From contig CAWFJJ010000028.1 in NCBI GenBank assembly GCA_963816185.1, positions 352,001-416,000 on the forward strand: DNA of 64,000 nt. Direction: 5' to 3'. The position numbers and the translations under genes are program-made. Under the pieces are notes generated by a model. That model was not told the origin of the DNA. It worked only from the letters and a program-made list of their open reading frames with translations, and did not search any database. Positions 27,787 to 58,593 of the stretch are shown piece after piece (the first letter of the stretch is position 1; each line of letters begins with the position of its first letter). The stretch is from Thermoanaerobaculia bacterium. Its GTDB lineage: Bacteria > Acidobacteriota > Thermoanaerobaculia > UBA5066.

Positions 27787-30535
27787 TTGTCCCTGACAGC
27801 CGGGACGAAACTGGGGCCTTACGAGACGCTCTCCGGGGGGCGCCTTCGGCCGCCCCCCGGTACCCCCCGCGGGGTGACGATCTGAGTCTGGTCTGCGGCG
27901 CACAAGTTAGGTCCCTACGAGATCCTCGCGCCGCTCGGCGCGGGCGGGATGGGCGAGGTTTATCGGGCGCGGGACCAGAAGCTCGACCGGGATGTCGCGA
28001 TCAAGGTGCTGCCGGAAGCCGTCGCCGCCGATGCGGACGCGCTGGCGAGGTTCGAGCGGGAGGCCAAGGCGGTCGCGGCGCTCTCGCACCCGAACATCCT
28101 CGCGATCTCACGACTTCGGAACGCACGACGGCATCGCCTATGCCGTCATGGAGCTTGCTCGAAGGCGAGACGCTGCGCGGCAAGCTCGACGCCGGACCGA
28201 TCCCGCAGAAGCAGGCCGTGGACTACGCCGCTGCAGATCGCGAAGGGCCTCTCCGCCGCCCACGAGAAGGGGATCGTCCACCGGGACCTGAAGCCCGAGA
28301 ACCTCTTCGTCCCGAAGGACGGCCACGTGAAGATCCTCGACTTCGGCCTGGCAAAGAGAGTCGAGGCGGTCAGCCCCGGAGCGAGGAGACGAGCGCGCCG
28401 ACGGTCTCGGGTCACACGGAGCCCGGGACGGTCATGGGCACGATGGGCTACATGTCGCCCGAGCAGGTGCGGGGGCTCCCCGTCGATCACCGCTCGGACA
28501 TCTTCTCGTTCGGGGCGATCCTCTACGAGATGCTTCGGGCAAGAAGGCGTTCAAGAGGGACACGGCGAGCGACACGATGGCGGCGATCCTGCGGGACGAG
28601 CCGCCGGAGCTCTCGGGGTCGGGACGGAACATCTCGTCCGCTCTCGACAGCATCGTCCGGCATTGCCTGGAGAAGGACCGGGACAACCGTTTTCAGTCGG
28701 CGAAGGACATCGTGTTCGCGCTCTCGGAGCAGTCCTCGGCGACCGTCGACGAGCGGCGCGCGGCTGGCGGCGCCACCGGCCGGAAAGAGGATCGTCCTCG
28801 GCGCCGTTGCGGCCCTCGCCGTTCTCGCGGTCGCTGGCATCTTCCTCCTGCGCCGGCCGCACACGACGTCGGGCGGGATCGGGGGCGTGAAGCGCCTGGC
28901 CGTGCTGCCGTTCGAGAACGTGGGAGCTCCCCAGGACGAGTATTTCGCCGACGGCATGGCCGACGCCGTGCGCGGCAAGCTCACGTCGCTTGCCGGGCGT
29001 CGAGGTGATTGCCAGAGCCAGCTCGACCCCGTACAAGAAGACGACGAAGACGCCGAAGCAGATCGCCCGACGAGCTCGACGCGAGATATCTGCTGACGGC
29101 GACCGTGCGCTGGGAGAAGAGCGGAGGCACGAGCCGCGTGCAGGTCAGCCCGGAGCTGGTCGAGGTGAACGAGCCCGGCGCCGCCACCTCGAGGTGGCAG
29201 CAGCCCTTCGACGCGGCGCTGACGGATGTCTTCCAGGTGCAGTCGGACATCGCGACGCGCGTGGCGCAGGCTCTCGATGTCGCGCTCGGGGCGGGCGACG
29301 AGAAGCGGCTTGCGGAGAACCCCACGCAGAACCTGGCCGCCTACGACGCCTTCCTGAAGGGCGAGGAAGTCTCGAGGAGCATGGCCATCAACGATCCGGC
29401 CAGCCTGCGCAAGGCGCTCGGGCTCTACGAGCAAGCCGTGGCCCTCGATCCCGGCTTCGCGCGGGCCTGGGCGCAGATTTCCAAAGCCGACTCGATCCTG
29501 TACGGCAACAGCGTGCCGACGCCGGAGCTGGCCGAGCGCGCGCGCCAGGCAGCGGAGAAGGCGGTCGCCCTCGCGCCAGACCAGCCCGACGGATACCTGG
29601 CCCTCGGCACCTACATGCGCGTGGTCGTCGCGGACCTCAGCCGCGCGCTGGAGCAGTACGCGAAGGGGCGGCGCGTTGCGCCTGGCAACGCCGACTTGCT
29701 CAGGGCAACCGCGTTGACCGAGCAGAGCCTCGGACACTGGGACGCGGCGGTGGAGCACTTCAAGCAGGCAGAGCGCCTCGATCCCCGGTCGATCAACAAC
29801 AAGTGGACGCTCGGCATCGCGCTGCTTCGTCTGAGGCGATATCCCGAAGCGCGCGAAGCCTTCGACCGCGGGCTCGCCCTCGCGCCCGCAAACCTCACCC
29901 TGATCGAGCAAAAGGCGATGACGTTCCTCGGGGAGGGAGATCTCGCGGGAGCGCGATCCGTGTTGCACGCCGTGCCCAAAGAGGTCGAGCCCACGGCAAT
30001 GGTGTCCTATCTGGCGACTTACTTCGATCTCGTCTGGGTCCTCGACGAGGAGCAGCGTGAGCTGCTTCTGCGTCTGACACCGAGCGCCTTCGACAACAAC
30101 AGGGGGGCCTGGAGCCTCTGCCTCGTCCAAGCCTATGCGCTCAAGGGCGATGCGGCCAACGTACGCTCCCACGCCGAGGAAGCGAGAAAGGCCTTCCAGC
30201 AGCAGCTTCTCGCCGCGCCACAGGACCCGCAGCTTCACATCCTGCTCGGCCTCGCACTCGCCTACCTCGGCCAGAAAGACGAAGCGATCCGAGAGGGAGA
30301 ACGCGGTGTCGCGCTCCTGCCCGTGACCAAAGATGCGTACCTCGGTCCCTATCTCGAGCACCAGCTCGTGCGCATCTACATCCTCGTCGGCGAGCCGGAA
30401 AAGGCGCTCGACCAGCTGGAGCCGCTCCTGAAGATCCCGTACGTCCTCTCGCCCGGCTGGCTCAGGATCGACCCGAATTTCGACCCGCTGCGCAAGAACC
30501 CGAGGTTCCAAAGGCTCGTCGAGAGGGCGAAATGA
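27787..30535 (+). CDS. Hanks-type Ser/Thr kinase with TM, TolB_N-like (LAVLPFEN) and TPR domains; several frameshifts and a duplicated 5' end (pseudogene or assembly errors)
   Basis: [34 protein letters not shown] are spread over several frames; the TPR region is intact in ORF 29009..30535. Confidence 0.8.
27833..27860. repeat. GC-rich REP-like hairpin between two copies of the kinase N-terminus
   Basis: CCGGGGGGCG-ccttcggc-CGCCCCCCGG, a perfect 10-bp stem, followed by TACCCCCC. Confidence 0.65.
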
Positions 30536-33216
30536 CCCTCGCGTCCGGAACGCGGCTCGGGCCCCTACGAGATCCTCGCGCCGCTCGGCGCAGGCGGGAT
30601 GGGGGAGGTTTACCGGGCGAGAGACACGCGGCTCGCGCGGGAGGTCGCGGTCAAGGTGCTGCCGGAAGAGTTCTTCGAAGAGCGAAGAGAAGCGGCAGAG
30701 GTTCGAGCGGGAAGCGAAGCTGCTGGCCTCGCTGAACCATCCCAACATCGCGGTCATCTACTCATTCGAAGAAATCCCCGCTTCCTCTCGTCCTCGTCGC
30801 GACACCTCCTGGTCATGGAGCTGCTCGAAGGCGAGACGCTGTCGGAGCGGCTCGCGAAAGGGCCGCTGCCGCTCGACCAGGCGTTGCGGTATCGGCGGGG
30901 AGATCGCGCGAGGCGCTCGACAAGGCCCACCGCCGGGGGATCGTCCACCGGGACCTCAAGCCCGGCAACGTGATGCTGACGAAGTCGGGCGTGAAGCTGC
31001 TCGACTTCGGGCTCGCGAAGGCAGATCGCGCCGGACGCGCCGAACGGCGCGCTGTCGGCGCTGCCGACGCAGACAGGTCACTGACGGCGGAGGGCGCCGT
31101 CATCGGGACGTTCGCAGTACATGGCGCCGGAGCAGCTGGAAGGGAAGGAGGCCGACGCGCGGACCGACATCTTCGCGTTCGGCGCCGTGCTCTACGAGAT
31201 GGCGACCGGGAGGAGGGCGTTCGCGGGGGCGAGCCGGGCTTCGCTGGTCGCGGCGATCATGTCGAGCGAGCCCACCGTCGATCTCCTCGATTCAGCCCGA
31301 CGACGCCGCCGGCGCTCGACCGCTCGTGAAGACGTGCCTCGCGAAGGACCCCGACGACCGCTGGCAGAGCGCCGGAGATGTCGCCAGGGAGTTGAAATGG
31401 ATCGCGGAGGGCTCGGCGCCGGCTGGCGCCGCCTCTCCGGCCGTCGCCGGCGCCGCAGTCGCCGCGAGGGCTCGCGTGGGCCGTCGCGGCGCTGCGCGAT
31501 CGTCGCTCGGCGCTTTGCGGCGCCTCCTGTCTCGCCGGTCGCCGGCGCCCGAGGAGCTGACGCGCTTCACGATCATGCCGCCCTCCGGCCAGGGCTTCCT
31601 GCGGATGGTCACGCTCTCTCCGGACGCGCGGCGCATTGCTGTTCCTTCTCCAGGACGAGGGAGGAAGAACCTCGATCGCGGTTCGCCCGCTCGACAGCCT
31701 CGAGACCCGGCGGCTGCCGGGCACCGAGGACGCCCGCGGCATGTTCTGGTCGCCCGACGGCCGCGAGATCGCTTTCTTCTCGGAAGGGAGGCTGAAGCGC
31801 ATGGGCGCGGACGGCGGCCCCGTCCAGACGATCTGCGAGAGCGGGGGCGCGTTCTCCGGCGCGTGGGGCCGCCAGGGCACGATCCTCTTCACGAAGGAGT
31901 TCGGCGACCCCATCGTCGCCGTCTCCGCGGCAGGAGGCACGCCTCGGCCGGTCACGGCGCTCGACCCGGCGCGTGGCGAAGTCGCGCACTTCCATCCCGC
32001 GTTCCTTCCCGACGGACGGCATTTCGTCTTCGTGGCGCGCAACCTCGACCCGGAGAAGACCTCCGTCGTGCTGGCGTCGCTCGATTCGAAGGAGGTCCGC
32101 CGGCTCTTCCATGCGGACTCCGCCGCCGTCTTCGCCGATCCGGATACCTCCTGTTTGCGCGGGACAACGCCCTCTTCGCGTGGAGATTCGATCCCCGGCG
32201 CCTCGAGCTCGTCGGGGACCCCGTTCCCGCGTTCGAGCACGTCCGCTACACGACCGAGGACAACTTCCTGTCGGCTCTCGGCGGCCGGAAACCGCGTGGC
32301 GTACCTGTCGTGGTCCATGCGGCGGAGGCTCGTTTGGGTGGACCGGAAGGGGCGCGAACTCGGCACCCTCGGCGACGTCGGCGGCTACGAGGACGTCCGC
32401 ATCTCGCCGGACGGCCGGAGGGTGGCCGTGCCGTGCGCGATCCGGCGCACGGCCAGAACCAGGACGTCTGGGTCCTGGATGCCTCCCGCGGGACGGGTAC
32501 GCGGATCACCGCCGAGCGCACGGACGAGTTCGACCCGGCGTGGTTCCCGGACGGCGAGCGGCTGGTCTATGTCTCCGATCGCGTGTCGGTTTCTACGATC
32601 TCTACGAGCGGCCGGCGAGCGGGGGCGCCGAGAAGATTCTGGTTCGGACGAAGCAGGACAAGATCTCTGCCGACGGTGTCGCCCGACGGCCGGCATCTGC
32701 TCGTGGACGTCCCGGAGGCGGGCAGGTTCGCGCGCGTTCTGATCCCGCTGTCCGGAGGCGGCGATTCCTCGGTTGAGCGGCGACTCCCGGTTCTCGGAGG
32801 AGCATCCCGAGATCTCGCCGGACGGCCGCTGGACCGCGTTCGACTCGCAGCGAGTCGGGGCAGAGGGAAGTCTACGTGCAGCCTCTGCCGGAGGGTCCGA
32901 AGCGTCAGGTCTCGATCGGCGGCGGCCAGATGCCGGTCTGGAATCGAAACGGCTCGGAGCTCTTCTACGCGGCCCGGGACGGGATGCTGATGTCGGTCAC
33001 CATGCGCCTGCCGCGGGCCGGCTGGAGATCGCGGAGCCGCAGCCGCTCTTCCTCCTGCAGCTCGGAGTGAGCGGGGAGATCCAGATCCACCGCCACCCTT
33101 ATGACGTCTCTCCGGACGGCCAGCGGTTCCTCGTGATCCGCCGCGCGCCGGACGCCGAGCCCGACGGCGCTGTCGTCGTCACGAACTGGACCGCGGTGTT
33201 GAAGAAAATCCCGTAA
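30532..33216 (+). CDS. Hanks-type Ser/Thr kinase with PD40/WD40-like beta-propeller; many frameshifts
   Basis: [49 protein letters not shown], repeated (W/I/V)SPDG motifs, terminal VVTNW. Confidence 0.8.
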
Positions 33217-40598: not shown

Positions 40599-43500
40599 CT
40601 ACTCGCCGACGACGCGGCGGCAGCGCGCGCAGATGCCGCTCGGCTCGACGTCGGTACGCACCTGCCAGCAACGCGGACATTTGGCACCCTCGGCGGGACG
40701 GACGGCGATGGCGTCCTCTTCGCCCTCCCGCACGACCGACGGTGTTCCAAAGACGTCGGCGAGTTCTTCTTCTGAGAGGGAAAGAACGGCGAGCGCTTCG
40801 TCGACGGCGCCGCCCCGCCCCACGACGACGGTGGCCTGAGAGGCGGACCCGACTTTCCCCTCTCTTCGGAGCGGCTCGAGGACCTGCAGGAAGTCCGCTC
40901 GGGCCGCCAGGATGCGTCGCCATGCCTTTCTTTCATTCGAAGAGATCTCCGGGAGCTTTACATCGTCCCAGCTTCGCAGGAAAAGCGCGGAGGGATCCGC
41001 CGCATTTCCCGGGATCGCCTCCCAGATCTCTTCCGCCGTGAACGGGCAGATCGGCGAAAGGCCGAGGGCGATGGTCCTGGCGAGCTGGTAGGCGGCTGTC
41101 TGCGCCGAGCGCCGCACGGGATCGTCCGCAGCGAGGACGTAAAGCACGTCCTTTCGCACGTCACACCAGAACGCCGACAGGTCCGTCGTCACGAGATCGA
41201 GAAGGCGTCGCGACACCACGTGGAACGCATAGTCGCGGTAGGCGTCCCTCGCATCGCCGGCAAATTGCGCCGCGACGTCGAGCACCCACCGGTCGAGGGG
41301 CTCGAGTCGGCTTTCCGGCACGCTGTCCTTCGCCGGGTCGAAGTCGGACAGGTTCGAGAGGAGAAAGCGCGCCGTGTTGCGGATCTTGCGGTAAGCCTCG
41401 GACGTCCGCTTGAGGATCTCGTCGGAGACGGGGTCGTCGTTCGTGTAGTCGGCGGAAGCGACCCAGAGCCGCAGCACGTCGGCGCCGTCCTTCTTGATGA
41501 CGTCGTGCGGGTCCACCGTGTTTCCGAGCGACTTCGACATCTTCCGGCCGTCTCCCGCGACGACGAACCCGTGTGTGAGCACCGCGTCGTAGGGCGCGCG
41601 GTTCGTCAGCGCGACGGAGGTCAGCAACGACGACTGGAACCACCCGCGGTGCTGGTCGTGCCCCTCGAGGTACATGACCGGGACCGGGGGGTGTGCCGTG
41701 TACGGGTCCTCGATACCGTAGTCGCCCGAGCGGAGGACGGCCGCGTGCGACACCCCCGAGTCGAACCACACGTCGAGGATGTCCTTGACCTTCTCGAAGT
41801 TCGCACCGCCACAGCGCGCGCAGGAAGCAGAGGACGTCGAGGTCGACGATGAAGAGAAAGAAGAAGAGGAAGAGAAAGAGGAAGACGAAGAATTGCTTAG
41901 AAAGTAAGACGGGGGGAAGGCGGCGTCGTCATACCAGGCATCCGCTCCGTGTTCGCGAAATGTCCCTCTTACCCTTTCAAAGAATTCTCCTCTTTCTTTC
42001 CTCTCTCGATCGCTGACTTCTCCCTCGACCGACGGGTAGTGCGAAACGACGCCCTTCTCCATGCAATCGGTGCACCTCAGAAACGTGATGGGCGAGCCCC
42101 AGCGGCGCTGGCGGGAGATCGTCCACTCGAGGCGGTTGTCGACCATCGCGCCGATGCGGTTTTCGCTGTAGGACGGGATCCACTCCACCCGGTCGTGGAT
42201 CTCGGACATCGCGCGCTCGCGGAGTGCGCCGAGGTCGATGAACCACTGGTGGGTCGCGCGGAAGATGACGGGCTGCTTGCACCGCCAGCAATGGGGGTAG
42301 GAGTGAGAAAGAGATTTCTTCGAAAGGAGGAGAGATCCGGAGTGGTCCTTGCCCGGACGTCCCGCGAAGCTCGACGCCTCGGCGGGCGTCGTCGCGAGCG
42401 CCGCGAGGACCGCGTCGTTCGCGCTCTCGTCGGGCGTTTTCGGGATGACGACTCTCTTCCCGCGCAGGAACTCCGGCGCGTTCGCGTCGTAGTACCCGCC
42501 TTCGTCGACCGGGCAGAGAGCCGGGTCGTCCACCTTGAAGGCGTGCCTCCTCACGACCTCGTAGTCGTCGCGCCCGTGGCCCGGAGCCGTGTGGACGAGG
42601 CCCGTGCCGTCCGTCGTCGACACGTGCTCGCCGAGGAGGAATCCGAAATTGGTTTCGGACGACGCGGCGAAGGGACGTCGATAGACGAGGCCGGCGGCGC
42701 CTAGGGTCGCGCCGCTTTTCTTCGAATGGGGAAGAGGGCTGGCGTCGCGCCAGCCGAGCGCGGCCGTCACTTGCGGGACGAGCGCAGCCGCGACGAGATA
42801 AGCGGCCCCAGGCTCGTCTTCCTTTCTGAGAAGAATGTATTCGATGCTCGGGCCAAGGGCGATCGCCCGGTTTGCGGGGAGAGTCCACGGCGTGGTCGTC
42901 CAGATGAGGGCGAACAGCCGCAGTGTGCCGGTCGCGTTTGCGAGGTCGGGCCACACCGCTTTCCAGGAATCTCCGTCCAACGGCATCGCGACGTAGACCG
43001 ACGGATCGGTCCTGTCCTCGTACTCGACCTCCGCTTCCGCGAGGGCGGTGCGGTCGCGCACGCACCAGAGGACGCTCTTGAATCCGAACGTGACGAGCCC
43101 TCTGTCCACGAAGCCGCCGAAAGCCCTGGCGATCTCGGACTGATAGGAGAAGTCCATCGTGCGATAGGGCGCCTCCCACCTGCCGAGGATTCCGAGGCGC
43201 TTGAAGTCGGAGCGCTGGTCGTCGATCCACCTCTCCGCGAACTTCCGGCACGCCCGGCGGATCGCGACGTCGGACATCTCGCGCTTCTTCGGCCCGAGCT
43301 CCTTGTCCACGCCCAGCTCGATGGGGAGGCCGTGGCAGTCCCAGCCGGGCACGTACGGTGCGTCGAGGCCCGCGAGAGTCTTGCTGCGGACGACGAGGTC
43401 CTTCAGGATCTTGTTCATCGCCGTGCCGATGTGGATCTTGTTGTTCGCGTACGGCGGGCCGTCGTGCAGGAGGAAACGCGGGGCGCCGGCGCGCGCTCGC

Positions 43501-43743: not shown

Positions 43744-44688
43744 ATGGCGAGAATCCGGACAGGAGTCGTGGGATGCGGCTATCTCGGCCGGCACCACGCT
43801 CGGATCCTCACGGAGCTCGCCGACTCCGAGCCCGTCGGCTTCGTCGAGCCGGACGACGCGACGGCGGCCACGATCGAGGCCGCGCACGGTCCGAAAGGAC
43901 TCGCTCGGAGGCCTTCCGTCAAAGAGCTCCTGGGAGCGGGCGCGATGGCGGTCGTGGTGGCGTCTCCGACCTCCACCCACGCCGCGGTGGCGGAAGAGCT
44001 CCTCGCCGGGGGCGCCGACGTCATGGTCGAAAAGCCGATCACGGTCACCCTGGCCGAGGCCGACCGTCTCGTCGCTCTCGCGCGGGCCAAGGGCCGCATC
44101 CTTCAGGTCGGCCACATCGAGCGCTTCAATCCGGCGGTGGCCGCCGTGCGCCCGCTCGTCACGGATGTGAAGTTCATCGAGGCGCACCGGCTCGGGGTCT
44201 TCGTCCCGCGCGCGCTCGACGTGGACGTCGTCCTCGACCTCCTCGTCCACGACCTCGACATCGCGCTCGACCTCGTGGGCAAGCCGGTCACGGAGATCCG
44301 GGCGGTCGGCGTGCCGATCCTGAGCGAGAAGATCGACATTGCCTCGGTGCGCCTTTCCTTCGAGGGCGGGTGCGTGGCGAACCTGACCGCCTCGCGCGTC
44401 TCACAGGACAAGACGCGGAAGTTCCGGTTCTTCCAGCCCGACTGGTACTTCTCGATCGACACTCAGCACCGGGATGTGACGGCATTTCGTCTCGACCGCC
44501 TCAGCGGCCCGCCGCGCATCGTGCCGTGGCCCGTGACGGTCGAGCCCGCGGATCCTCTCACCGCCGAGGACTCCGCGTTCCTGAAGGCCTGCGCGGAGCG
44601 CACCGAGCCGGAAGTGACGGGCGAAGCCGGCCGCGCGGCGCTCAAGCTGGCGCTCGACATTCTCGAGGAGATGGGGCGGGGACGATGA
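43744..44688 (+). CDS. Gfo/Idh/MocA family oxidoreductase (GnnA-like)
   Basis: GVVGCGYLGRHH, VEKP, VGHIERFNPA, LDLLVHDLD, TASRVS. Confidence 0.9.
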   Translation: MARIRTGVVGCGYLGRHHARILTELADSEPVGFVEPDDATAATIEAAHGPKGLARRPSVKELLGAGAMAVVVASPTSTHAAVAEELLAGGADVMVEKPITVTLAEADRLVALARAKGRILQVGHIERFNPAVAAVRPLVTDVKFIEAHRLGVFVPRALDVDVVLDLLVHDLDIALDLVGKPVTEIRAVGVPILSEKIDIASVRLSFEGGCVANLTASRVSQDKTRKFRFFQPDWYFSIDTQHRDVTAFRLDRLSGPPRIVPWPVTVEPADPLTAEDSAFLKACAERTEPEVTGEAGRAALKLALDILEEMGRGR

Positions 44689-45719
44689 AGAGAAAAGGGA
44701 ACAAGAACTCTTTCTTATATACGGCGGCTGCTGATGCAGCCGCCGATAGAAGAAAGTCTTCTCCCCGAATGGTCGATGTCAAGGGCGTGCTTCGCGCGCC
44801 GCGCAGCGGTCGCAGACCCTTGACATCGGCCATTCGGGGAATACGGTCGTCGACCAAGTCTTTGCGGCGCATCGGCCTCATCGGCGGCTCGGGTCTTTAT
44901 TCACTTCCCGGCCTCGAGATCACTCGCGAAATCGGGCTTTCGACGCCCTTCGGCGACCCCTCCGACTCTTTCTTTCTAGGAAGTCTCTCTTCGGTCCCTG
45001 TCGCATTTCTCGCGCGTCACGGACGTCACCATTCGTTCCTGCCTTCCGAGATCAACTACCGAGCGAACGTCTGGGGGTTCAGGAAGCTCGGCTGCTCGTG
45101 GCTTCTCTCGGCCTCGGCCTGCGGCTCGATGAAGGAGTCCTACGCGCCGGCCGACATCGTCCTGCCGGACCAGTTCCTCGACTTGACGAAGCGGCGCGTC
45201 TCGACGTTCTTCGGAGACGGCTGTGCGGCGCACGTGTCGTTCGCGCACCCCGTTTCGGCCGTTCTTCTCGACGCTGTGGAGGCGGCCGCGAAGGCGGAAG
45301 GGGCCGTGTGCCATCGAGGCGGAACGTACGTGTGCATCGAAGGACCCCAGTTCTCGACGAAGGCCGAGTCTCTGCTCTACCGTTCCTGGGGCGCGGACGT
45401 GATCGGGATGACGAACGCCACCGAGGCAAAGCTCTGCCGCGAGGCGGGGATCGGCTATGCGTCGATGGCGCTCGTCACGGACTACGACTGCTGGCACGAG
45501 GAGCAGGCCGCGGTCTCGGTGGAAGCTGTCCTCGACGTCCTGAAAAGAAACGCCGGCACCGCGAATCGCGTCCTCGCGAACGCCGTTCGCCGCCTCGACC
45601 CGGACAGCCCGAGCGACTGCGCGGACGCCCTCGAGTGGGCCGTTCTCACGCCGAGGAACCGGATCAGTCCCGCCGCCTCGAAGCGCCTCGCGCTTCTTCT
45701 GAACAAGGACGAGAGATGA
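44685..45719 (+). CDS. mtnP: S-methyl-5'-thioadenosine phosphorylase, with a repeat-derived N-terminal extension if started at ATG 44685 (alternative TTG 44862)
   Basis: IGLIGGSGLY, TPFGDPSD, RHGRHH, NYRAN, EGPQFST, IGMT, VTDYDCW; ATGA overlap with the upstream gene. Confidence 0.92.
   Translation: MKRKGNKNSFLYTAAADAAADRRKSSPRMVDVKGVLRAPRSGRRPLTSAIRGIRSSTKSLRRIGLIGGSGLYSLPGLEITREIGLSTPFGDPSDSFFLGSLSSVPVAFLARHGRHHSFLPSEINYRANVWGFRKLGCSWLLSASACGSMKESYAPADIVLPDQFLDLTKRRVSTFFGDGCAAHVSFAHPVSAVLLDAVEAAAKAEGAVCHRGGTYVCIEGPQFSTKAESLLYRSWGADVIGMTNATEAKLCREAGIGYASMALVTDYDCWHEEQAAVSVEAVLDVLKRNAGTANRVLANAVRRLDPDSPSDCADALEWAVLTPRNRISPAASKRLALLLNKDER
44706..44840. repeat. Composite palindromic repeat copy 1: hairpin A (44722-44745) plus cruciform B (44762-44840)
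   Basis: A: CGGCGGCTGC-tgat-GCAGCCGCCG. B: TCCCCGAATGGTCGATGTCAAGGG...CCCTTGACATCGGCCATTCGGGGA. Near-identical to 58373-58490. Confidence 0.92.
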
Positions 45720-48634: not shown

Positions 48635-51190
48635 ATGCAACGCACCGCGACGGCGACCACGAAGGCCGACGAAATCCTCAGGATCGAGGCGAAGTGGCGC
48701 GACCGCTGGGAGGCGGACCGCGCCGCATTCGTGGATACGACGAAGCCCGCGGGGGACGGAACATACCTCCTCGTCATGCTTCCTTATCCCTCGGGCGACC
48801 GCCTGCACGTCGGGCACGCGCGCACATATTTCCTGACCGACGCGCTCCAGCGCTTCCTGCGCCAGACGGGCGTGACCGTGTTCTGCCCGATGGGCTGGGA
48901 CGCGTTCGGCCTGCCTGCCGAGAACTACGCGATCCAGAAGGGCATCCATCCGCGCACCTCCACGCTCGCGAACATCGCGGCCATGAAGGAGCAGTTCCGG
49001 ACGTGGGGCGTTCTTTACGACTGGACGAAGGAAGTCACGACCTGCGAGCCCGAGTACTACCGCTGGAACCAGTGGTTCTTCCTGAGGCTCCTCGAAAAAG
49101 GCCTGGCGGTCCGCAGGAAGGCCGCGGTGAACTGGTGCCCGTCGTGCGAGACCGTCCTCGCGAACGAGCAGGCCGAGGGCGGCGTCTGCGACCGGTGCGG
49201 CACTGCGGTGGTGCCCCGCGAGCTCGAGCAGTGGTTCCTGAAGATCACCGACTACGCCGAGCGCCTGCTGGACGGCCTCGACACGCTCCGCAAATGGCCC
49301 GAGAAGGTCGTCACGATGCAGCGCAACTGGATCGGCAAATCCACGGGCGCCGATCTGGATTTCGCGATCCCGAAGCTGAACGAGACGGTCCGCGTCTTCA
49401 CGACGCGCCCGGACACCGTCTTCGGCGCCACGGCGCTCATCCTCGCGCCCGAGCACGCGCTCGTCCCGCGCCTTCTCGAGGGCCATCCGAAGCGGGCCGA
49501 GCTGGAGGCCTGGGTCAATTCCGTGCGCAGCCAGGAGCGCATCGTCCGCGAGGCCGAGGGAGCCGAGAAGGACGGCCGCGACACCGGCCGCACGGCGATC
49601 AACCCCTTCACGGGGAAGGAAGTGCCCGTGTGGCTCGCGAACTTCGTCATCGCCGACTACGGCACGGGCGCGCTCATGGCGGTACCCGCGCACGACACGC
49701 GCGACTTCGAGTTCGCGAAGAAGTACGGCATCCCCATCGTCAGGGTGATCGAAGAGGGGAAGAGAGAAAAGAAGGAAGATTTGCTTAGAAAGGAAGAGGG
49801 GGAGGGCGCAGCGGCGGCCAGCGGCGACGCGGCTTTGACAGGCCTTCCATACACGGGCGAGGGCCCGCTCATTGCCTCCGGACCATTCACAGGAATCTTC
49901 TCTTCTCTTGCCCGAGAATTCATCGCAGCCGATGCCGCGAATCGCGGCATCGGCGGGCCGCGCGTGCGGTATCGGCTCCGCGACTGGCTCATTTCGCGTC
50001 AGCGCTACTGGGGCACGCCGATTCCCATGATCCACTGCGAGAAGGATGGCTGGGTGAGTGTGCCGGAGAAGGACCTGCCGGTCGTGCTGCCGCCTGACGC
50101 GCCGTTCACGGGCAAGGGCGGCAATCCGCTCGAGAAGGTCGCTTCGTTCGTCCAGACGACGTGCCCTTCGTGCGGAGGCCCGGCCAGGCGCGAGACGGAC
50201 ACGATGGACACGTTCGTGGACTCGTCCTGGTATTTCCTCCGGTACATTGACCCGAAGAACGGCGCGGCGCCCTTCGATCCCGCAATCGTGAGGGAATGGG
50301 CGCCGGTCGACCAGTACATCGGCGGCATCGAGCACGCGATCCTCCACCTCCTGTACGCGCGGTTCTTCACCCGCATCCTGAAGGACCTCGGCCTCGTGAC
50401 GTTCGAGGAGCCGTTTTCGGCTCTCTTCAACCAGGGCATGATCACGCGCCTGTCCCCGACGGGCCGCGTGGAGAAAATGTCGAAGTCGCGGGGCAACTCG
50501 GTGTCTCTCGACTCGCTCATCGCGGAGAAGGGAGCCGACGCCGTGCGCGCGTTCGTCCTCTTCCTCGGGCCGCCGGAGAAGGACGCCGAGTGGAGCGACG
50601 AGGGCATCAGCGGGCCGGAGCGCTTCCTCTGGCGCGTGCGGGGCGCCGTGGACCGGTTCCTCGCGACGGGCGCCGATCCGCAAGCACAGCCGGCGGCGGC
50701 CGACACGCCCGCGGCGCGCGCGCGCCACATGGCGATCAAGAAGGTCACGGAGGACTTCCGGGCGTTCTCGTTCCACACGGCCGTGGCGCACCTCATGGAG
50801 CTGCTCAACGGCGCGGCGGTCCTCGTGAACGACGCGGGCGCGGACGCGGGGGAGACCGCGACGACGCTGCGCACGCTCGTCACGCTCCTCCATCCCATCG
50901 CGCCGCACCTGTCGGAGGAGCTGCACGAGAGGATGGGCGGCACGAAGAGCCTCCTTGCCTCGGGCTGGCCGACCTACGATCCGGCGCTCGCCGAGATGGA
51001 AGAGGCTTCGATCGCCGTGCAGGTGTCGGGGAAGGTGCGTGCCGAGATCAAGCTGAGAAGAGGATCTTCCGAGAAAGAGGCGCTGGCCGCCGCCCAGGCT
51101 GAGGCGGCGCTCTCGCGGTGGCTGGAAGGAAAGCAGATCGTCAAAACCATCTGGGTTCAGGATCGACTGTTGAACATCGTCGTGCGATGA
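48635..51190 (+). CDS. leuS: Leucine--tRNA ligase
   Basis: [59 protein letters not shown]. Confidence 0.97.
49751..49800. repeat. Module C purine tract inside leuS (encodes [16 protein letters not shown])
   Basis: Purine tract containing GAAGATTTGCTTAGAAAG; shared with ileS and with the reverse complement of 58538-58575. Confidence 0.75.
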
Positions 51191-51194
51191 GGAG

Positions 51195-51896
51195 ATGCTG
51201 CTTTCGGATTTTTCTGATATGCGGCGGCGGCTGATGCAGCCGCCGATGGATGGCAACGTGCCCTCGGCTGGCCGGAGTCAAGGGTCTTCGACCGCTACGC
51301 GGCGCGCGAAGCGCGCCCTTGACACCGACCAGCCGAGAGCTATCCCTCTCTCTTTTTCCTTCAAAGAAATCTCTCTTTCTTCTCTTTCCTTTCTTGTCTT
51401 TCTTGCCTTCGCTGCCTCTTCGTCCGGCTGCGGGTACACGCTCGTGGGGACCGGGTCGAGCGCGGTGCCCGTCGGCGTCAAGACGGTATACGTGCCGACG
51501 TTCATCAATGAGACGACGGTCGTGGGCCTCGAGCAGCGCCTCACGGACGCCGTCATTCGCGAGCTTTCCGCGCGTGGCCGTCTCAAGCCCGTGTCGGACA
51601 GGGGGGCGGCGGATTCGGAGCTGTCCGGGCAGCTGACATCCGCGTCGGTCGCCCCCGTCCGCTTCGACGCGAACGGAATCGCCGTCGAATATCAGGTGAC
51701 CGTTACCGGAAAGATCGTTCTCACCGAGAAGGCCACCGACAAGCCCATCTTCTCCGAGCCCGCTTACCTGTTCCGGCAGCCATACACCGTGCCGTCGAGC
51801 GCCAGCTCGTATTACGACCGAGAGCGCGAGGCCATCGAGGCGATGGCCCGCCCCTTCGCGCAGAACCTCGTCACGACGATCCTGGAAGGATTCTGA
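51195..51896 (+). CDS. lptE: LPS-assembly lipoprotein LptE with a repeat-derived long signal region
   Basis: SGCGY at 51423-51437, 'VYVPTFINET..GLEQRLTDAV', position after leuS. Confidence 0.85.
   Translation: MLLSDFSDMRRRLMQPPMDGNVPSAGRSQGSSTATRRAKRALDTDQPRAIPLSFSFKEISLSSLSFLVFLAFAASSSGCGYTLVGTGSSAVPVGVKTVYVPTFINETTVVGLEQRLTDAVIRELSARGRLKPVSDRGAADSELSGQLTSASVAPVRFDANGIAVEYQVTVTGKIVLTEKATDKPIFSEPAYLFRQPYTVPSSASSYYDREREAIEAMARPFAQNLVTTILEGF
51211..51410. repeat. Composite palindromic repeat copy 2: A (51222-51245), inverted B (51263-51337), pyrimidine tract C
   Basis: TTCTGATATGCGGCGGCGGC-tgat-GCAGCCGCCG; GTCAAGGG...CCCTTGAC with the loop reverse-complemented relative to copies 1 and 4; TTCAAAGAAATCTCT. 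Confidence 0.9.
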
Positions 51897-54575: not shown

Positions 54576-55124
54576 TCACTTCCCGGCAGGGCGGGGGCTG
54601 CCTGTTTCCAGAAAGTTCTTGAGCCTTCCCACCTGCTCGCCGACCACTTCGTCCACGATCGGCGCGATCTTCTCGAATCCTCCCGCCATATAGCCGCCGA
54701 TGCCGTACGTGACCACGAGCTTCGTGCCATCTTCGGCTTTCGCGAGGTCCCACGTCATGCTCCCGGCGAGCCCCAGGCCCTGAAGGGGGCCGATGGCGCC
54801 GGTCATGCGCAGCGCCTTGCCCGGGCCTGCGTAGACGACGGTCATGTGCTGGACCCCGCCGCCGTCCGGGAACCTCTCGCAAAAGCAGCCGCCCGGAACG
54901 GCGGCGATCGAGAGGTTCCTGGCATCGTGTGAAAACGTGTGCTCCGGATTCCACCAGCTCCCTACCTTCGCGGTGAGCGTGTCGTAGACGACTCCGGGGG
55001 TGGCCTTGATCGCGACTTCGTGCTTCACGGCGAAACCGCTCGGGCCGACGCTCATGACTTCCGCGGAAAGGGGCGCGGAGAGAAGCGCCACCGCGCAGAC
55101 CAGAATGGATGGAAGTTCTTTCAT
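54576..55124 (-). CDS. Secreted SRPBCC/START-fold protein
   Basis: Signal peptide, 'WWNPEHTFS...GGCFCE...LRMTGAIGPLQ'. Confidence 0.75.
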   Translation of the reverse strand: MKELPSILVCAVALLSAPLSAEVMSVGPSGFAVKHEVAIKATPGVVYDTLTAKVGSWWNPEHTFSHDARNLSIAAVPGGCFCERFPDGGGVQHMTVVYAGPGKALRMTGAIGPLQGLGLAGSMTWDLAKAEDGTKLVVTYGIGGYMAGGFEKIAPIVDEVVGEQVGRLKNFLETGSPRPAGK

Positions 55125-55166
55125 TTCTGATATTCGGGGCTGCTGATGCAGCCCCGATAGTAGAAA
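55124..55166. repeat. Repeat copy 3: hairpin A only (55134-55157)
   Basis: TTTCTGATAT-TCGGGGCTGC-tgat-GCAGCCCCGA-TAG. Confidence 0.85.
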
Positions 55167-55183
55167 CTCTTCTCGCGAGAGCT

Positions 55184-56950: not shown

Positions 56951-58369
56951 TCATTCTAGCGTCTTGATCCACGAGGGGGAAAAATTGTTCCCGGAAGAGG
57001 TCACGATGCGGGGCGTGCCGCCGCCGTCCGCGTTTCCGACGGCGATCTGGGTCGAGCTGCCGCGCTGCACATCCCAGGCGATCTTCGATCCGTCCGGCGA
57101 CCACGTAGGGCTCTCGTGGGCGCCCGGCCCGCTCGAAATCTGCACGGTTCGCCCGGTTGCGAGGTCCATGACACAGATCTGGAAATCGCCCTCGTTCCGG
57201 CACGCGAACGCCATCCGCCCCCCGTCCGGCGAGAAAGTCGCCTCGTCGTTCCAGTTCCCGGCGAGCGAGACCCGACGCACGTTCGCACCCTCGAGGTCCA
57301 TCATGAAAATCTGGGGCGTGCCCTGGCGGTTCGACGTGAACGCCAGCTCGCGCCCGTTCGGGGACCACCGGGGCGTCGAGTCGATCGCCACGTTCTCGGT
57401 GAGCCGTTTCAGGTTCGAGCCGTCCGTCTGGACCGTGAAGATCTCGGTGTTCCCCTTCACGCTTCCGCAGAAGGCGATCGTCTTGCCGTCCGGGGAGAAG
57501 GACGGGGACGCGTTGAGCTGCGTCGGGACGCGAATCTGACGCTTGTCGCCTCCGTCCTTCCCGATGAGCCACAGGCCCGGCGTATCCTTCTCATACGACT
57601 GGTACACGATCTTCGCCCCGTCGGGAGACCAGTCCGGCGCGAGCGACAGCGTGTTCGAATAGGTGATCCGGCGCTGGTTGTCGCCGTCGAAGTCCATCGT
57701 GTAGATCTCCTTCACGACGTTCTTCCCCGCGACCCGGTCGCGGTCGGACGAAAAGGCGATCTTCGTCAGGAACGGCCCGGGTTTGCCCGTGAACTGGCGT
57801 ACGAGGTCGCTCGCGAGCGTGTGCGCGATGCGGCGCGCCGCCCGCATCTCGCCGGAGTACTTTCTGCCCATGATGGACTTGAGCGTGCTGAGATCCCAGA
57901 GAGTCGCCTCGACGACGACGCCCCCGCCGTCCGGCGCGAGGTGCGTATCGAGCAGGAACTGCGCCGACGTGGCTTTCCACGCGTCGCCCTCTTCGCGATT
58001 TTGGGGCGGGCGCATCCCCTTCGGGTAAAGAGCCGGATCGGCCACGACGAAGACGCCGGAGCCGGCGAGGTCGTCGGTGAGCGTCGTGTAGAAAGGATCC
58101 ACGGCCCGCGTCTGAAGGTCCGGCGAGATCGGCGCGACCGTCATCGGAATCGCCAGCGGCCGGCGTGCTCCGGTGGCTCCGGTGAGCGTGAGATCGATGT
58201 TCGAGGGCTGCGAGATCCCGGACATGGTCGGAACGGGCTTCGGCGCCTGGCCGAGAAGGGGCGTCGCCGCCAGAGCGAACAAGAGCGCTACGAGCGAGGA
58301 CCGGGGAGAGATATTTCTGATATTCGGGGTTCCTGATGCAGCCGCCCGGGGAAGGGATTCTTTTCTCAT
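56951..58369 (-). CDS. tolB: Tol-Pal beta-propeller protein TolB
   Basis: TolB_N (DDL..SG.F, RRIAH, F.TKIAF) plus six (W/F)SP(D/N)G-type repeats; lies upstream of pal. Confidence 0.93.
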   Translation of the reverse strand: MRKESLPRAAASGTPNIRNISPRSSLVALLFALAATPLLGQAPKPVPTMSGISQPSNIDLTLTGATGARRPLAIPMTVAPISPDLQTRAVDPFYTTLTDDLAGSGVFVVADPALYPKGMRPPQNREEGDAWKATSAQFLLDTHLAPDGGGVVVEATLWDLSTLKSIMGRKYSGEMRAARRIAHTLASDLVRQFTGKPGPFLTKIAFSSDRDRVAGKNVVKEIYTMDFDGDNQRRITYSNTLSLAPDWSPDGAKIVYQSYEKDTPGLWLIGKDGGDKRQIRVPTQLNASPSFSPDGKTIAFCGSVKGNTEIFTVQTDGSNLKRLTENVAIDSTPRWSPNGRELAFTSNRQGTPQIFMMDLEGANVRRVSLAGNWNDEATFSPDGGRMAFACRNEGDFQICVMDLATGRTVQISSGPGAHESPTWSPDGSKIAWDVQRGSSTQIAVGNADGGGTPRIVTSSGNNFSPSWIKTLE

Positions 58370-58593
58370 ATGCGGCGGCTGCTGATGCAGCCGCCGAATA
58401 CTTGAAATCTGCTTCCCGAATGGCCGATGTCAAGGGCGCGCTTCGCGCGCCGCGGAGCGGTCGCGGACCCTTGACATCGGTCATTCGGGGAATACGGCCT
58501 CTCTGCAAAATCTCTTCTCTTCCTCCTTTCCTTTCTTCCACTTCTAAGAAAATCCTCTTCTTCTCTTCTTCTTTGTCTTTCAAAGAATTCCCC
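58314..58593. repeat. Composite palindromic repeat copy 4: degenerate A', A (58373-58396), B (58415-58489), pyrimidine tract C (58500-58593)
   Basis: Same A and B sequences as copy 1; C contains TTCTAAGAAAATC and TTCAAAGAATTC. Confidence 0.92.

Follow-up and report, generated by a model that had tools for sequence, protein, structure and literature searches.

REP-like repeats are common, but most of what is understood of their spread and persistence comes from proteobacterial families associated with RAYT. Another kind of folded DNA, the parvovirus inverted terminal repeat, folds into a hairpin shaped like a T or a Y, which occurs in "flip" and "flop" forms and carries small internal palindromes at its tip. 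The REP, BIME and REPIN sequences of Proteobacteria are described as short, non-coding, GC-rich and hairpin-forming, present in tens of copies in intergenic DNA in either orientation, with patchy copy number between close species, vertical inheritance of many copies, compensatory changes across a long hairpin, and mosaics of hairpin modules (Bertels and Rainey 2011, PMC3116915; Di Nocera et al. 2013, PMC3733652). The CGTC REPs, according to one of these accounts, also have no dedicated transposase (PMC3733652), and SRMs (Ssn-related motifs) are reported to be cleaved in single-stranded form by Ssn enzymes, small nucleases of the GIY-YIG class (Chenal et al. 2025, PMC11893778). In Ripley's model, as reviewed, a template switch from one short inverted repeat to its partner makes the arms alike and leaves the spacer reverse-complemented (PMC8604942).

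The repeat unit described here, A-B, is about 140-150 nt of non-coding DNA of which module B forms the larger half. Judged by its sequence, it is a REP/BIME-like mosaic repeat, of a familiar kind with an unusually elaborate folded tip, and it shares with those elements all of the features listed above. It differs from REPINs in occurring without RAYT, in its own genome as in high-copy relatives, and without a GTAG tag. The centre of B is conserved and its outer stem variable, the reverse of REPINs, in which conserved REPs flank a variable pairing spacer; moreover, the tip of B is modelled as a closed four-way junction of three mini-hairpins, and about one copy in three has its interior inverted in place. 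To the parvovirus terminal repeat it bears a likeness only, in its long stem, tip palindromes with 3-nt loops and two tip orientations; B lies within a chromosome, with no evidence of a Rep/HUH nickase or of rolling-hairpin replication, and is not a member of that class. The invariant stem of B starts (T/C/A)GTC and continues AA...TT, on both strands, recalling the CGTC/TGTC tag and stem-base A-T pairs of CGTC/TGTC REPs and SRMs, though B is three to four times as long as an SRM (PMC11893778). Described template-switch inverted repeats likewise have spacers reverse-complemented between lineages amid collinear arms and flanks, including GAA/TTC flips (PMC8604942; E. coli quasipalindromes, PMC7202029), but the cases in those sources are scattered single loci with 2-5-nt spacers, whereas B is a whole family with a structured 31-nt spacer and with stems that appear to be additionally under purifying selection.

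Our overall reading, to which we assign a probability of roughly 0.55, is that A-B is a mosaic REP/BIME-like repeat in which B is a DNA palindrome with selected pairing and a flipped interior, gained and lost without RAYT. Either strand, or both as a cruciform, would fold into a 23-bp stem with a 31-nt tip filled by three stacked mini-hairpins bearing DNA-type C(GNA)G caps; as these would take up the tip entirely, no junction base would be left unpaired and the four-way junction would be closed. From such fold models we infer that B may form a hairpin or cruciform in the cell. Copies retained at one chromosomal site in several species would owe their pairing to purifying selection, helped now and then by template switching or recombination from arm to arm, and the latter process would also turn the interior round in place. 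Copies would be gained and lost between species by a route that does not involve RAYT. The host might benefit, for example if the element served as a sink for supercoiling or as a docking site for an architectural protein.

Composition and copies of the A-B unit

Units 1, 2 and 3, together with a solo module A, lie in the window (the whole 64,000-nt stretch of DNA analysed), as follows.

44705-44761, + strand: module A of unit 1, a quasi-palindrome with outer arms 44705-44717 and 44750-44762 and an ATAT/GATAG internal loop
44722-44731 (CGGCGGCTGC) and 44736-44745 (GCAGCCGCCG), + strand: inner hairpin of module A of unit 1, with a TGAT loop
44762-44785, + strand: left arm of module B of unit 1, 16 variable nt and then the invariant box GTCAAGGG (44778-44785)
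44786-44798, + strand: mini-hairpin 1, CGTGC TTC GCGCG, with a T.G wobble in this copy (consensus CGCGC)
44799-44809, + strand: mini-hairpin 2, CCGC GCA GCGG
44810-44816, + strand: mini-hairpin 3, TC GCA GA, of 2 bp only and the weakest of the three
44817-44840, + strand: right arm of module B of unit 1, the invariant box CCCTTGAC (44817-44824) and then the variable arm
44840-44846, + strand: conserved right flank AATACGG (consensus AATAYSS), where similarity between copies ends
51205-51262, + strand: module A of unit 2, inner hairpin at 51222-51245
51263-51337, + strand: module B of unit 2, with its interior (51285-51315) inverted relative to module A
55123-55181, + strand: solo module A, then TCTCG-CGAGAG
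58313-58412, + strand: degenerate A-like hairpin (58313-58350), then module A of unit 3 (58362-58412)
58413-58491, + strand: module B of unit 3

The second copy that the initial annotation placed at 51263-51337 is present, with arms CTCGGCTGG/CCAGCCGAG and an interior that is the reverse complement of the first, and the wobble reported to shift between copies does so: copy 1 has T.G at arm position 5, and the copy spanning 58413-58491 has G.T at position 6. The TCTCG-CGAGAG that follows the solo module A probably represents the outermost bases of two joined B arms, and hence the footprint of a deleted B.

BLAST yields 47 matches in the genome, comprising 43 full and 4 partial B copies, and a covariance model finds 44 full-length copies; partial copies number about 3-4. 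A new feature is that B constantly adjoins a second hairpin module: module A stands on one side of B at fixed spacing in 43/43 full copies, a fixed combination of differing hairpin motifs such as characterises BIMEs, and only 3 solo A loci occur in the genome. Arrangements A-B-A and A'-A-B are also seen, and a third hairpin module, found alone elsewhere too, substitutes part of 3 copies. Inversion of the loop of module A is very rare: among 120 loops scored, 60 read TGAT and just 2 read ATCA. All 44 full copies fall in inter-ORF spacers, as high-copy extragenic palindromes do, and the neighbours in the window are housekeeping genes encoding an MTAP-type phosphorylase, ThrRS, ScpA and ScpB; the gene calls behind the spacer placement and the transcription-strand comparisons below are crude ORF and GC3 calls. 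The idea that the core was inserted into pre-existing host hairpins was rejected, as the genome holds no outer-stem-like hairpin lacking the core, and 9 loose regular-expression hits were all unrelated.

Pairing, loops and strand

In unit 1, positions 44762-44785 pair with 44817-44840 to form a 24-bp stem with one T.G wobble, enclosing exactly 31 nt (44786-44816) that consist of three adjoining palindromes, mini-hairpins 1, 2 and 3. Thus the stem of 22-24 bp and the 31-nt tip with three mini-hairpins stand as annotated, except that the 4-bp versions of hairpins 2 and 3 proposed there share two G's and are therefore mutually exclusive. Closing pair 25-57 leaves hairpin 3 with only 2 bp, and it appears in the minimum-energy DNA fold of 0/42 copies. 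When fold energies of 44762-44840 are compared, DNA (-36.3 kcal/mol, z -8.4) and RNA (-61.8 kcal/mol, z -9.2) are both strongly folded, and 0/200 shuffles fold as well.

The compensatory change claimed for the outer stem is borne out. In the 43 copies of the genome itself, 13 of 23 pairs are altered on both sides, and doubly changed cells number 114, where shuffling yields 33.6 +/- 7.9 (0/500 shuffles reach 114); 95% of outer-stem cells are paired, a share that drops to 34-41% once the partner is slid; in 100 copies from other genomes the corresponding values are 14 of 23 pairs and 312 cells against 101, all such counts being of mutually related copies and not of independent events. Pair 17-65, next to the invariant box, is mismatched in 22/42 own and 53/100 other copies, and an A.A mismatch at this pair persists uncorrected in many copies and species. 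Between orthologues, identity is 92.5% in the arms (333/360), 69% in the mini-loops (75/108) and 67% in the flanks, the last with gaps scored as mismatches. The arm differences between orthologues are mostly one-sided (16 single changes versus 2 compensated doubles), which implies that compensation in place is slow. The contention that structure rather than sequence is under selection is not supported as worded: outer-stem pairing is kept amid sequence change, but the 45-nt centre is conserved as sequence, with 27 invariant columns across all own copies. For this core, only the own-genome set and two pairs found by synteny are unbiased samples. Compensatory-looking changes in a DNA palindrome, it should be stressed, do not in themselves demonstrate an RNA, or selection on a single strand.

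Since the inner hairpins are almost invariant, covariation is unable to test them; compensated changes are confined to a T-A pair replaced by C-G in hairpin 3 (in 1 copy of this genome and 6/100 of the external ones, a single subfamily) and a lone replacement of G-C by A-T at pair 25-57. The preference for G-N-A with a free middle base is supported by constraint on the loop ends: hairpin 2 has a G-N-A loop in 122/145 copies, giving the C(GNA)G form of DNA mini-hairpins, and hairpin 1 has T-N-C in 121/145, which the opposite strand reads as C(GNA)G. Hairpin 3 is looser (G-N-A 67, T-N-C 18, other 60; n=145). Single triloops also occur in inverted form, as GAA and TTC. Of 7 copies with GAA in the loop of hairpin 1, 6 have TTC in that of hairpin 3. 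Kissing of these two loops was considered and rejected: with TCGAA-type arms in common, the copies may represent a single lineage, and a TTC loop in hairpin 3 goes with T-N-C in hairpin 1 in 12 further copies. DNA GCGNAGC mini-hairpins are reported to be far stabler than their RNA counterparts (PMC13037366), with d(GNA) stability set by the closing pair (PMC3201870), and the predicted stability of the C(GNA)G caps in B recalls these by likeness of sequence. A tip of three stacked C(GNA)G mini-hairpins split over two strands would itself argue for two-strand DNA folding.

Several comparisons bear on strand and direction. Among mismatches at arm positions 2-14, G.T and A.C are equal (45 vs 45), and on the inferred transcribed strand 7 G.U stand against 13 A.C, small counts that depend on the crude gene calls. 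Among 28 co-directional contexts, half (14) have the interior in sense and half (14) in antisense orientation, and mean DNA fold energies of the two strands are -34.9 and -35.1 kcal/mol. Orientation of B shows no relation to GC skew, which is weak in this MAG and gives the comparison little power. Equality of G.T and A.C, the lack of transcription or replication bias, and equal folding of the strands together suggest a palindrome acting at the DNA level on two strands, not an RNA, so that, from these patterns, the evidence favours DNA over RNA. Selection at the level of single-stranded DNA, as initially proposed, thus survives in its preference for DNA over RNA but not in its single folded strand, because hairpins 2 and 3 have their G-N-A on one strand and hairpin 1 on the other, and neither strand folds better than its complement; nor is a link to replication supported, as orientation does not track GC skew.

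These observations weigh directly on the view that B is an RNA cis element of 3' UTRs or intercistronic spacers, such as a two-way terminator, a protector of mRNA 3' ends or an RNase III site, which we consider unlikely. Its intergenic position, rare between divergent genes (4/42 contexts) as expected at 3' ends, agrees with such a role, as do the very stable RNA fold and the conservation of the stem at orthologous sites; yet G.U is not in excess of A.C on the inferred transcribed strand, and the T-N-C loop of hairpin 1 corresponds to G-N-A on the other DNA strand. We know of no RNA rationale for that constraint. Rfam gave 0 matches in the window at gathering scores, and at E up to 10 only generic hairpins of the miRNA-precursor type, at 12-28 bits against thresholds of 35-150. 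An intrinsic terminator was rejected, both a terminator-like site and a U tract being absent, as was a promoter built on the two TTGAC(A) boxes that point outward: nothing like a sigma-70 site is present, and A-to-B runs in the same direction as the downstream gene in only 20/42 contexts.

Inversion of the interior in place

The interior of B is inverted relative to module A in 10/43 own copies, and in the 104 external loci listed A lies to the left in 49, to the right in 26 and to either side in 1, while 28 loci gave no detectable A. Orthologue groups defined by unique flanks hold both orientations in 4/12 cases under strict and 8/17 under relaxed definitions, with 0 inconsistent; in their alignments the flanks, module A and the arms are collinear and the interior alone is reverse-complemented, with breakpoints inside or outside the mismatch at pair 17-65. 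In-situ inversion of the B interior at orthologous loci, repeated in evolution, is new. Template switching is the cause that we infer. The 8/17 groups form a natural series of in-place inversions in which spontaneous template switching can be weighed against selection on pairing.

Taken to its limit, that process could make B a mutational by-product alone, with template switching keeping the arms complementary in selfish or junk palindromes that have no function. Frequent spacer inversion in situ is a hallmark of template switching, the single triloops are inverted as well, G.T equals A.C as expected of unfiltered transitions, and the mechanism is documented (PMC8604942, PMC7202029). Unbiased homogenisation, however, predicts neutral arm evolution, whereas arms are at 92.5% and loops at 69% identity in the same elements; one-sided changes between orthologues exceed converted doubles by 16 to 2, the A.A mismatch at pair 17-65 persists instead of being corrected, and the first and last loop bases are constrained. 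We therefore consider this account, without selection, very unlikely. There is likewise scant probability that B is a double-stranded binding site, its centre (GTCAAGGG, 31 nt, CCCTTGAC) read by a dimeric or architectural protein with the arms incidental: sequence-specific binding could account without folding for a symmetric, strand-independent element with a centre conserved as sequence in all own copies, but inversion alters the double-stranded sequence of the interior while both states persist at orthologous loci, the variable arms stay paired, which a centre-only site would not need, and no candidate protein was found.

Distribution and routes of spread

Gain and loss of A-B are evident at orthologous sites. 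At the MTAP site, where 11 relatives were read, A-B is present in 1 (G007), 7/11 have spacers of 15-102 nt without A-B, and 3/11 carry a different repeat. Unit 2 occurs in this genome (G000) only, the orthologous site being empty in G007, G012 and G017, and unit 3 is common to G000 and G007 at an orthologous site and absent in G017. A target duplication could not be defined, because empty and filled sites are unalignable owing to diverged spacers or breaks in synteny; neither a target-site duplication nor an excision product nor an enzyme of mobilisation came to light, and "mobile" therefore refers here solely to differences in presence and copy number.

A partner of the HUH class had been expected for B. 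No match to PF01797 (Y1/RAYT) exists in the genome, which is 94.9% complete, while control genomes were matched. Within the genus it is present in 4/29 genomes, none of them high-copy, with covariance-model matches on both strands numbering 8 in G028, 0 in G018, 0 in G020 and 4 in G014; it is absent from G007, G012, G025, G026 and G006, each with 44-76 model matches on both strands. Searches for TnpB and for a PF03432 relaxase found none; for Y2 transposases (PF04986) the control genomes were all silent. Alignments show no GTAG tetranucleotide adjoining either module, A ending in GATAG and the B box starting (T/A/C)GTC. A folded single-stranded site, B or A-B, copied by a RAYT or IS200-type Y1 enzyme or a relative is given little weight, as is the alternative of a possible priming signal; orientation is unbiased to GC skew, and the layout of conserved and variable parts is opposite to that of REPINs. 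Patchy copy number would suit such a site, and so would the mismatch of pair 17-65 beside the box in about half of copies. Extrahelical bases serve strand choice in single-stranded DNA recombination sites, which that mismatch recalls. Compensatory changes across a long hairpin are described for REPINs too (PMC3116915), and mini-hairpins for single-stranded priming sites (PMC13037366).

The published SRM search pattern matches 0/47 B copies and, genome-wide, gives 64 matches against 65 in a block-shuffled control, that is, no enrichment; the sole PF01541 match lies in a 616-aa open frame and not in a small Ssn-sized protein, although Pfam may miss cd10448 members. No integron integrase (TIGR02249) scores above cut-off, the best reaching 74 against 265 bits, and the copies, dispersed among housekeeping genes and facing either way, do not form the arrays of like-oriented sites behind cassette ORFs that mark integron attC sites. 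A MITE would be expected to have terminal inverted repeats like those of a resident IS, together with target-site duplications; for the resident families, IS3 and IS110, no link to A-B was seen at a coarse level, and targeting of the repeats by IS110 was rejected, its 6 copies being neither in nor next to A-B. A plasmid or phage origin was also rejected, blastn against the two collections giving no match. With no RAYT or Ssn partner detected, the family provides a test case for other routes of spread. One such route would make B a device maintained by the host and not junk, a cruciform driven by supercoiling, with a ready-made, fully stacked four-way junction at its tip, on which a candidate junction- or hairpin-specific enzyme would flip the interior, by parvovirus-like hairpin transfer or by junction resolution, and copy A-B to new sites. 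To this we give little credence; if true, it would represent a RAYT-free mechanism of mobilisation or inversion for bacterial interspersed repeats.

The preferred reading, of a DNA palindrome gained and lost without RAYT, applies to a family that, from its sequence matches, is that of one genus-level lineage of uncultured soil Thermoanaerobaculia (Acidobacteriota). Among 61 related genomes searched, 23 match: 19/28 within the genus, 3/8 in other genera of the same family, weakly, and 0/24 in two other families, with from 0 to more than 38 copies per genome. A pattern scan of 185,579 species' genomes found at least 104 loci, in which invariance of the core is imposed by the search pattern; those listed are all from Thermoanaerobaculia/Acidobacteriota MAGs, save one MAG labelled Acidithiobacillales. 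The segment 43900-46900 of the window is listed as carried by 20 sequencing runs, all DNA, of which 18 are labelled soil metagenome, 1 "metagenome", and 1 is unlabelled.

Fold and covariation of module B

The hairpin repeat termed module B lies in a short intergenic spacer, and its parts are as follows.

Module B and its setting (window positions)
Spacer: 173 nt between two genes
Upstream gene: GFO/IDH/MocA-type oxidoreductase, stop codon ending at 44688
Downstream gene: PNP_UDP_1 (MTAP-like) phosphorylase, start near 44862
44762-44785 with 44817-44840: outer stem of B, 24 bp including one T.G wobble
Mini-hairpin 1: 13 nt, CGTGC TTC GCGCG
Mini-hairpin 2: 11 nt, CCGC GCA GCGG
Mini-hairpin 3: 7 nt, TC GCA GA

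The outer stem proposed in the initial annotation, closing a 31-nt loop of three mini-hairpins, is confirmed at 44762-44840: exactly 31 nt are enclosed, and these consist of three adjoining palindromes. The mini-hairpins themselves stand in part, since hairpins 2 and 3, if drawn with 4 bp each, overlap by two G's, and hairpin 3 has just 2 bp and is absent from the DNA minimum-energy fold in 42 of 42 copies. When pair 25-57 (alignment columns of B) forms, every base at the junction is paired, which makes the structure a closed four-way junction. The comparison of folding energies suggested at the outset places both nucleic acids well beyond shuffled sequences (79-mer as DNA -36.3 kcal/mol, z -8.4; as RNA -61.8, z -9.2); the complementary strand folds nearly as well.

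The covariation claimed for the outer stem holds in two sets of copies. Among the 43 full copies of the source genome, both sides have changed at 13 of 23 outer-stem pairs, giving 114 doubly changed cells where shuffles give 33.6 +/- 7.9 (0 of 500 as high), and 95% of cells are paired, versus 34-41% when the partner is slid. Among the matches listed from other genomes (n=100), 14 of 23 pairs have changed on both sides (312 cells versus 101); this covariation was not forced by retrieval because the arms lay outside the search pattern, which did impose the invariance of the core in these external copies. Arm columns 5, 8, 9, 10, 12 and 16 are variable and columns 6, 7, 11 and 13-15 mostly constant, and 85 distinct arm haplotypes occur in 146 copies (own plus external among the matches listed). 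Pair 17-65 is mismatched in about half of copies, mostly as A.A. So little varies in the inner hairpins that covariation offers no test of them; their compensated changes are, in full, T-A to C-G in hairpin 3 (one subfamily) and G-C to A-T at pair 25-57 (once).

The triloops are constrained at their end bases and free in the middle, as first noted for the GNA loops. Across 145 copies (own plus external among the matches listed), the hairpin 2 loop is G-N-A in 122 and the hairpin 1 loop is T-N-C, hence G-N-A on the opposite strand, in 121, while that of hairpin 3 is G-N-A in 67, T-N-C in 18 and otherwise in 60. This C(GNA)G layout is known from very stable DNA mini-hairpins, which are far less stable when made of RNA (PMC13037366; PMC3201870). 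A hairpin 1 loop of GAA goes with a hairpin 3 loop of TTC in 6 of 7 cases (L039, L088, L099, L100, L134, L156), so that the loops remain complementary; this may reflect one lineage or a loop-loop constraint.

In-situ inversion, selection and the folding strand

The interior of B is inverted relative to its companion hairpin, module A, in 10 of the 43 own copies, one of which is that at 51263-51337 in the window. Among the external matches listed, A was left of the core at 49 loci, right at 26, on both sides at one, and undetected by the pattern used at 28. Since module A and the arms are unmoved and their spacing is unchanged, the two orientations reflect inversion rather than insertion either way round. 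Unique flanking DNA defines 17 orthologue groups between species (43 copies in total); strictly defined, 4 of 12 groups contain both orientations, and with relaxed criteria 8 of 17 do, with none inconsistent, and these groups prove that the interior turns round in place. In three aligned pairs the flanks, A and arms are collinear and the reverse-complement is confined to the 31 nt. One aligned pair has the 17-65 mismatch turned together with the interior, another has it unmoved; breakpoints therefore lie at different arm depths. Assembly error is an unlikely cause, since the k-mer size, as judged from 'k141' contig names in several of the assemblies, exceeds the 79 nt of the palindrome. Closely spaced inverted repeats that undergo template switching or recombine are described in PMC8604942 as having their spacers inverted and their arms homogenised, and we infer that the turning of B is what such events would produce.

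Arm homogenisation alone would leave a different record from the one observed. In 12 orthologue pairs the arms are 92.5% identical (333/360), the mini-loops of the same elements 69% (75/108) and the flanks 67% with gaps scored as mismatches; arm differences in 11 pairs comprise 16 one-sided single changes versus 2 compensated doubles. Because unbiased arm-to-arm copying would give doubles and not slower arms, purifying selection acts on pairing, in place, with template switching perhaps an occasional extra. On this view the paralogues covary because their lineages diverged long ago and compensation was slow. Of the initial proposal that structure rather than sequence is selected, the first half is retained, as pairing is selected; the centre, however, is also conserved as sequence.

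Several observations speak against an RNA specific to one strand and against a DNA fold on one strand only. At arm positions 2-14, G.T and A.C mismatches number 45 each, an equality that holds in each orientation class. In 28 co-directional gene contexts (crude gene calls), oriented by the flanking genes, 14 interiors lie sense and 14 antisense, and the inferred transcribed strand would have 7 G.U versus 13 A.C. Orientation does not track GC skew. On average the two strands fold with equal energy (DNA -34.9 vs -35.1 kcal/mol; RNA -55.1 vs -55.4), the stable G-N-A cap falls to hairpin 1 on one strand and to hairpins 2 and 3 on the other, and no promoter-like or terminator-like site was found. 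These features fit a two-strand DNA palindrome, either extruded as a cruciform or folding from either strand when single-stranded. The earlier placement of selection at the level of single-stranded DNA thus survives as to DNA, which the equal mismatches make likelier than RNA, but not as to a single strand, since both fold equally.

A mosaic of hairpin modules

Module A lies about 20 nt from one B arm in 43 of 43 full copies, and only three A loci of the source genome lack B.

Companion modules
Module A, quasi-palindrome: outer arm GATTTCT.., ATAT(G), stem CGGCGGCTGC, loop TGAT, stem GCAGCCGCCG, GATAG, outer arm ..AGAAATC
Third hairpin module (CCGGGGGC...GCCCCCGG), replacing part of A-B: source-genome contig positions C24:130026, C25:499837, C30:539992
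Third hairpin module, also listed: C24:178398, C17:2217, C29:69270, C28:434882

The A stem covaries too (GGGG/CCCC versus GGCGG/CCGCC, plus others), and inversion of its loop is rare (TGAT 60, ATCA 2, of 120 scored). Some loci are arranged A-B-A or A'-A-B, and in three copies the third module, which also occurs alone elsewhere in the genome, stands in place of the right half of A and the left half of B; hairpin modules are thus combined as a mosaic, like those of BIMEs. One solo A (window 55123-55181) is followed by TCTCG abutting CGAGAG, which, from its sequence, may be a deletion footprint in which the palindrome has gone and the outermost parts of two B arms have come together. A truncated B arm follows a second solo A (C29:155348).

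The HUH partner envisaged in the initial annotation does not appear in the data: Y1/RAYT genes are absent from the source genome and present in just 4 of 29 genus genomes, none high-copy. Neither TnpB, a PF03432 relaxase nor an integron integrase was found in the search for partners; the only GIY-YIG match lies within a 616-aa frame. The B box begins (T/C/A)GTC-AA, which recalls the Ssn/SRM system of PMC11893778; 0 of 47 B copies fit the SRM pattern, and the genome shows no enrichment of it (64 hits vs 65 in the shuffled control). Resident IS3-family (about 8 copies) and IS110-family (about 6) elements are unrelated to the repeats. Tests for membership of the RAYT, GTAG, SRM and attC classes were all negative. 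A-B is a REP/BIME-like mosaic repeat, distinguished from known ones by its closed four-way-junction tip and frequent in-situ inversion.

Distribution, gain and loss

Genomic copies were collected and modelled as initially recommended. In the source genome (5.09 Mb, 30 contigs) blastn-short located 47 B places, 43 full and 4 partial, and a covariance model built from the 43 full copies recovered 44 full-length and 3 partial. Small contigs of this assembly repeat parts of large ones at 88-99% identity (C14 vs C24, C10/C11 vs C1, C4 vs C29, C17 vs C30), which suggests strain variants binned together.

Among relatives, B matches occur in 23 of 61 genomes, the source included: 19 of 28 in the same genus, 3 of 8 in other genera of the family (weak single matches) and 0 of 24 in two other families of the order. 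Copy number across the genus ranges from 0, in genomes 97-99% complete, to at least 76 matches counting both strands, i.e. at least about 38 copies. An exact-pattern scan with one genome per species gave at least 104 loci; among the matches listed, every MAG is labelled Thermoanaerobaculia or Acidobacteriota bar one labelled Acidithiobacillales. That bin, with at least 10 copies of the Thermoanaerobaculia repeat (L092, L102, L106, L125, L126, L129, L140, L153, L159, L164), is probably mislabelled or mixed. Plasmid and phage collections and Rfam gave no match to B, and our literature search turned up no account of repeats like these from Thermoanaerobaculia.

The spacer ahead of the MTAP-like gene is syntenic in 28 of 28 relatives. 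Among 11 read, A-B is present only in G007; seven have spacers of 15-102 nt without A-B and three a different repeat. The unit at 51205-51337 is confined to the source genome, and that at 58313-58491 is common to it and G007 and missing in G017. Other GC-rich repeats occupy A-B sites in relatives, at the MTAP spacer (L076, L080 and L082, in G012, G025 and G008) and at the 51205-51337 site (G007, G012); one contains CGAATGGTCG and CGAATGGCCG, similar to the B arm. The spacers behave as exchangeable repeat slots.

Intergenic spacers are purine-rich or pyrimidine-rich (window 41863-41928, 49751-49816, 58542-58550; orthologous spacers L077-L085). Just ahead of gene starts many carry a motif like GATTTCTT(A/T)GAAGGG-AAGAG, or its palindromic core TTCTAAGAA; the motif, which 'empty' orthologous sites have as well, could serve as a promoter or regulator site specific to the lineage. 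The exact 9-mer is found just once in the window. Elsewhere in the window, 27910-28532 and 30560-31201 are neighbouring stretches with segments 73-87% identical, one of which would encode a 12-residue motif that we take to be that of a kinase; by sequence these are probably tandem paralogous Ser/Thr kinase genes.
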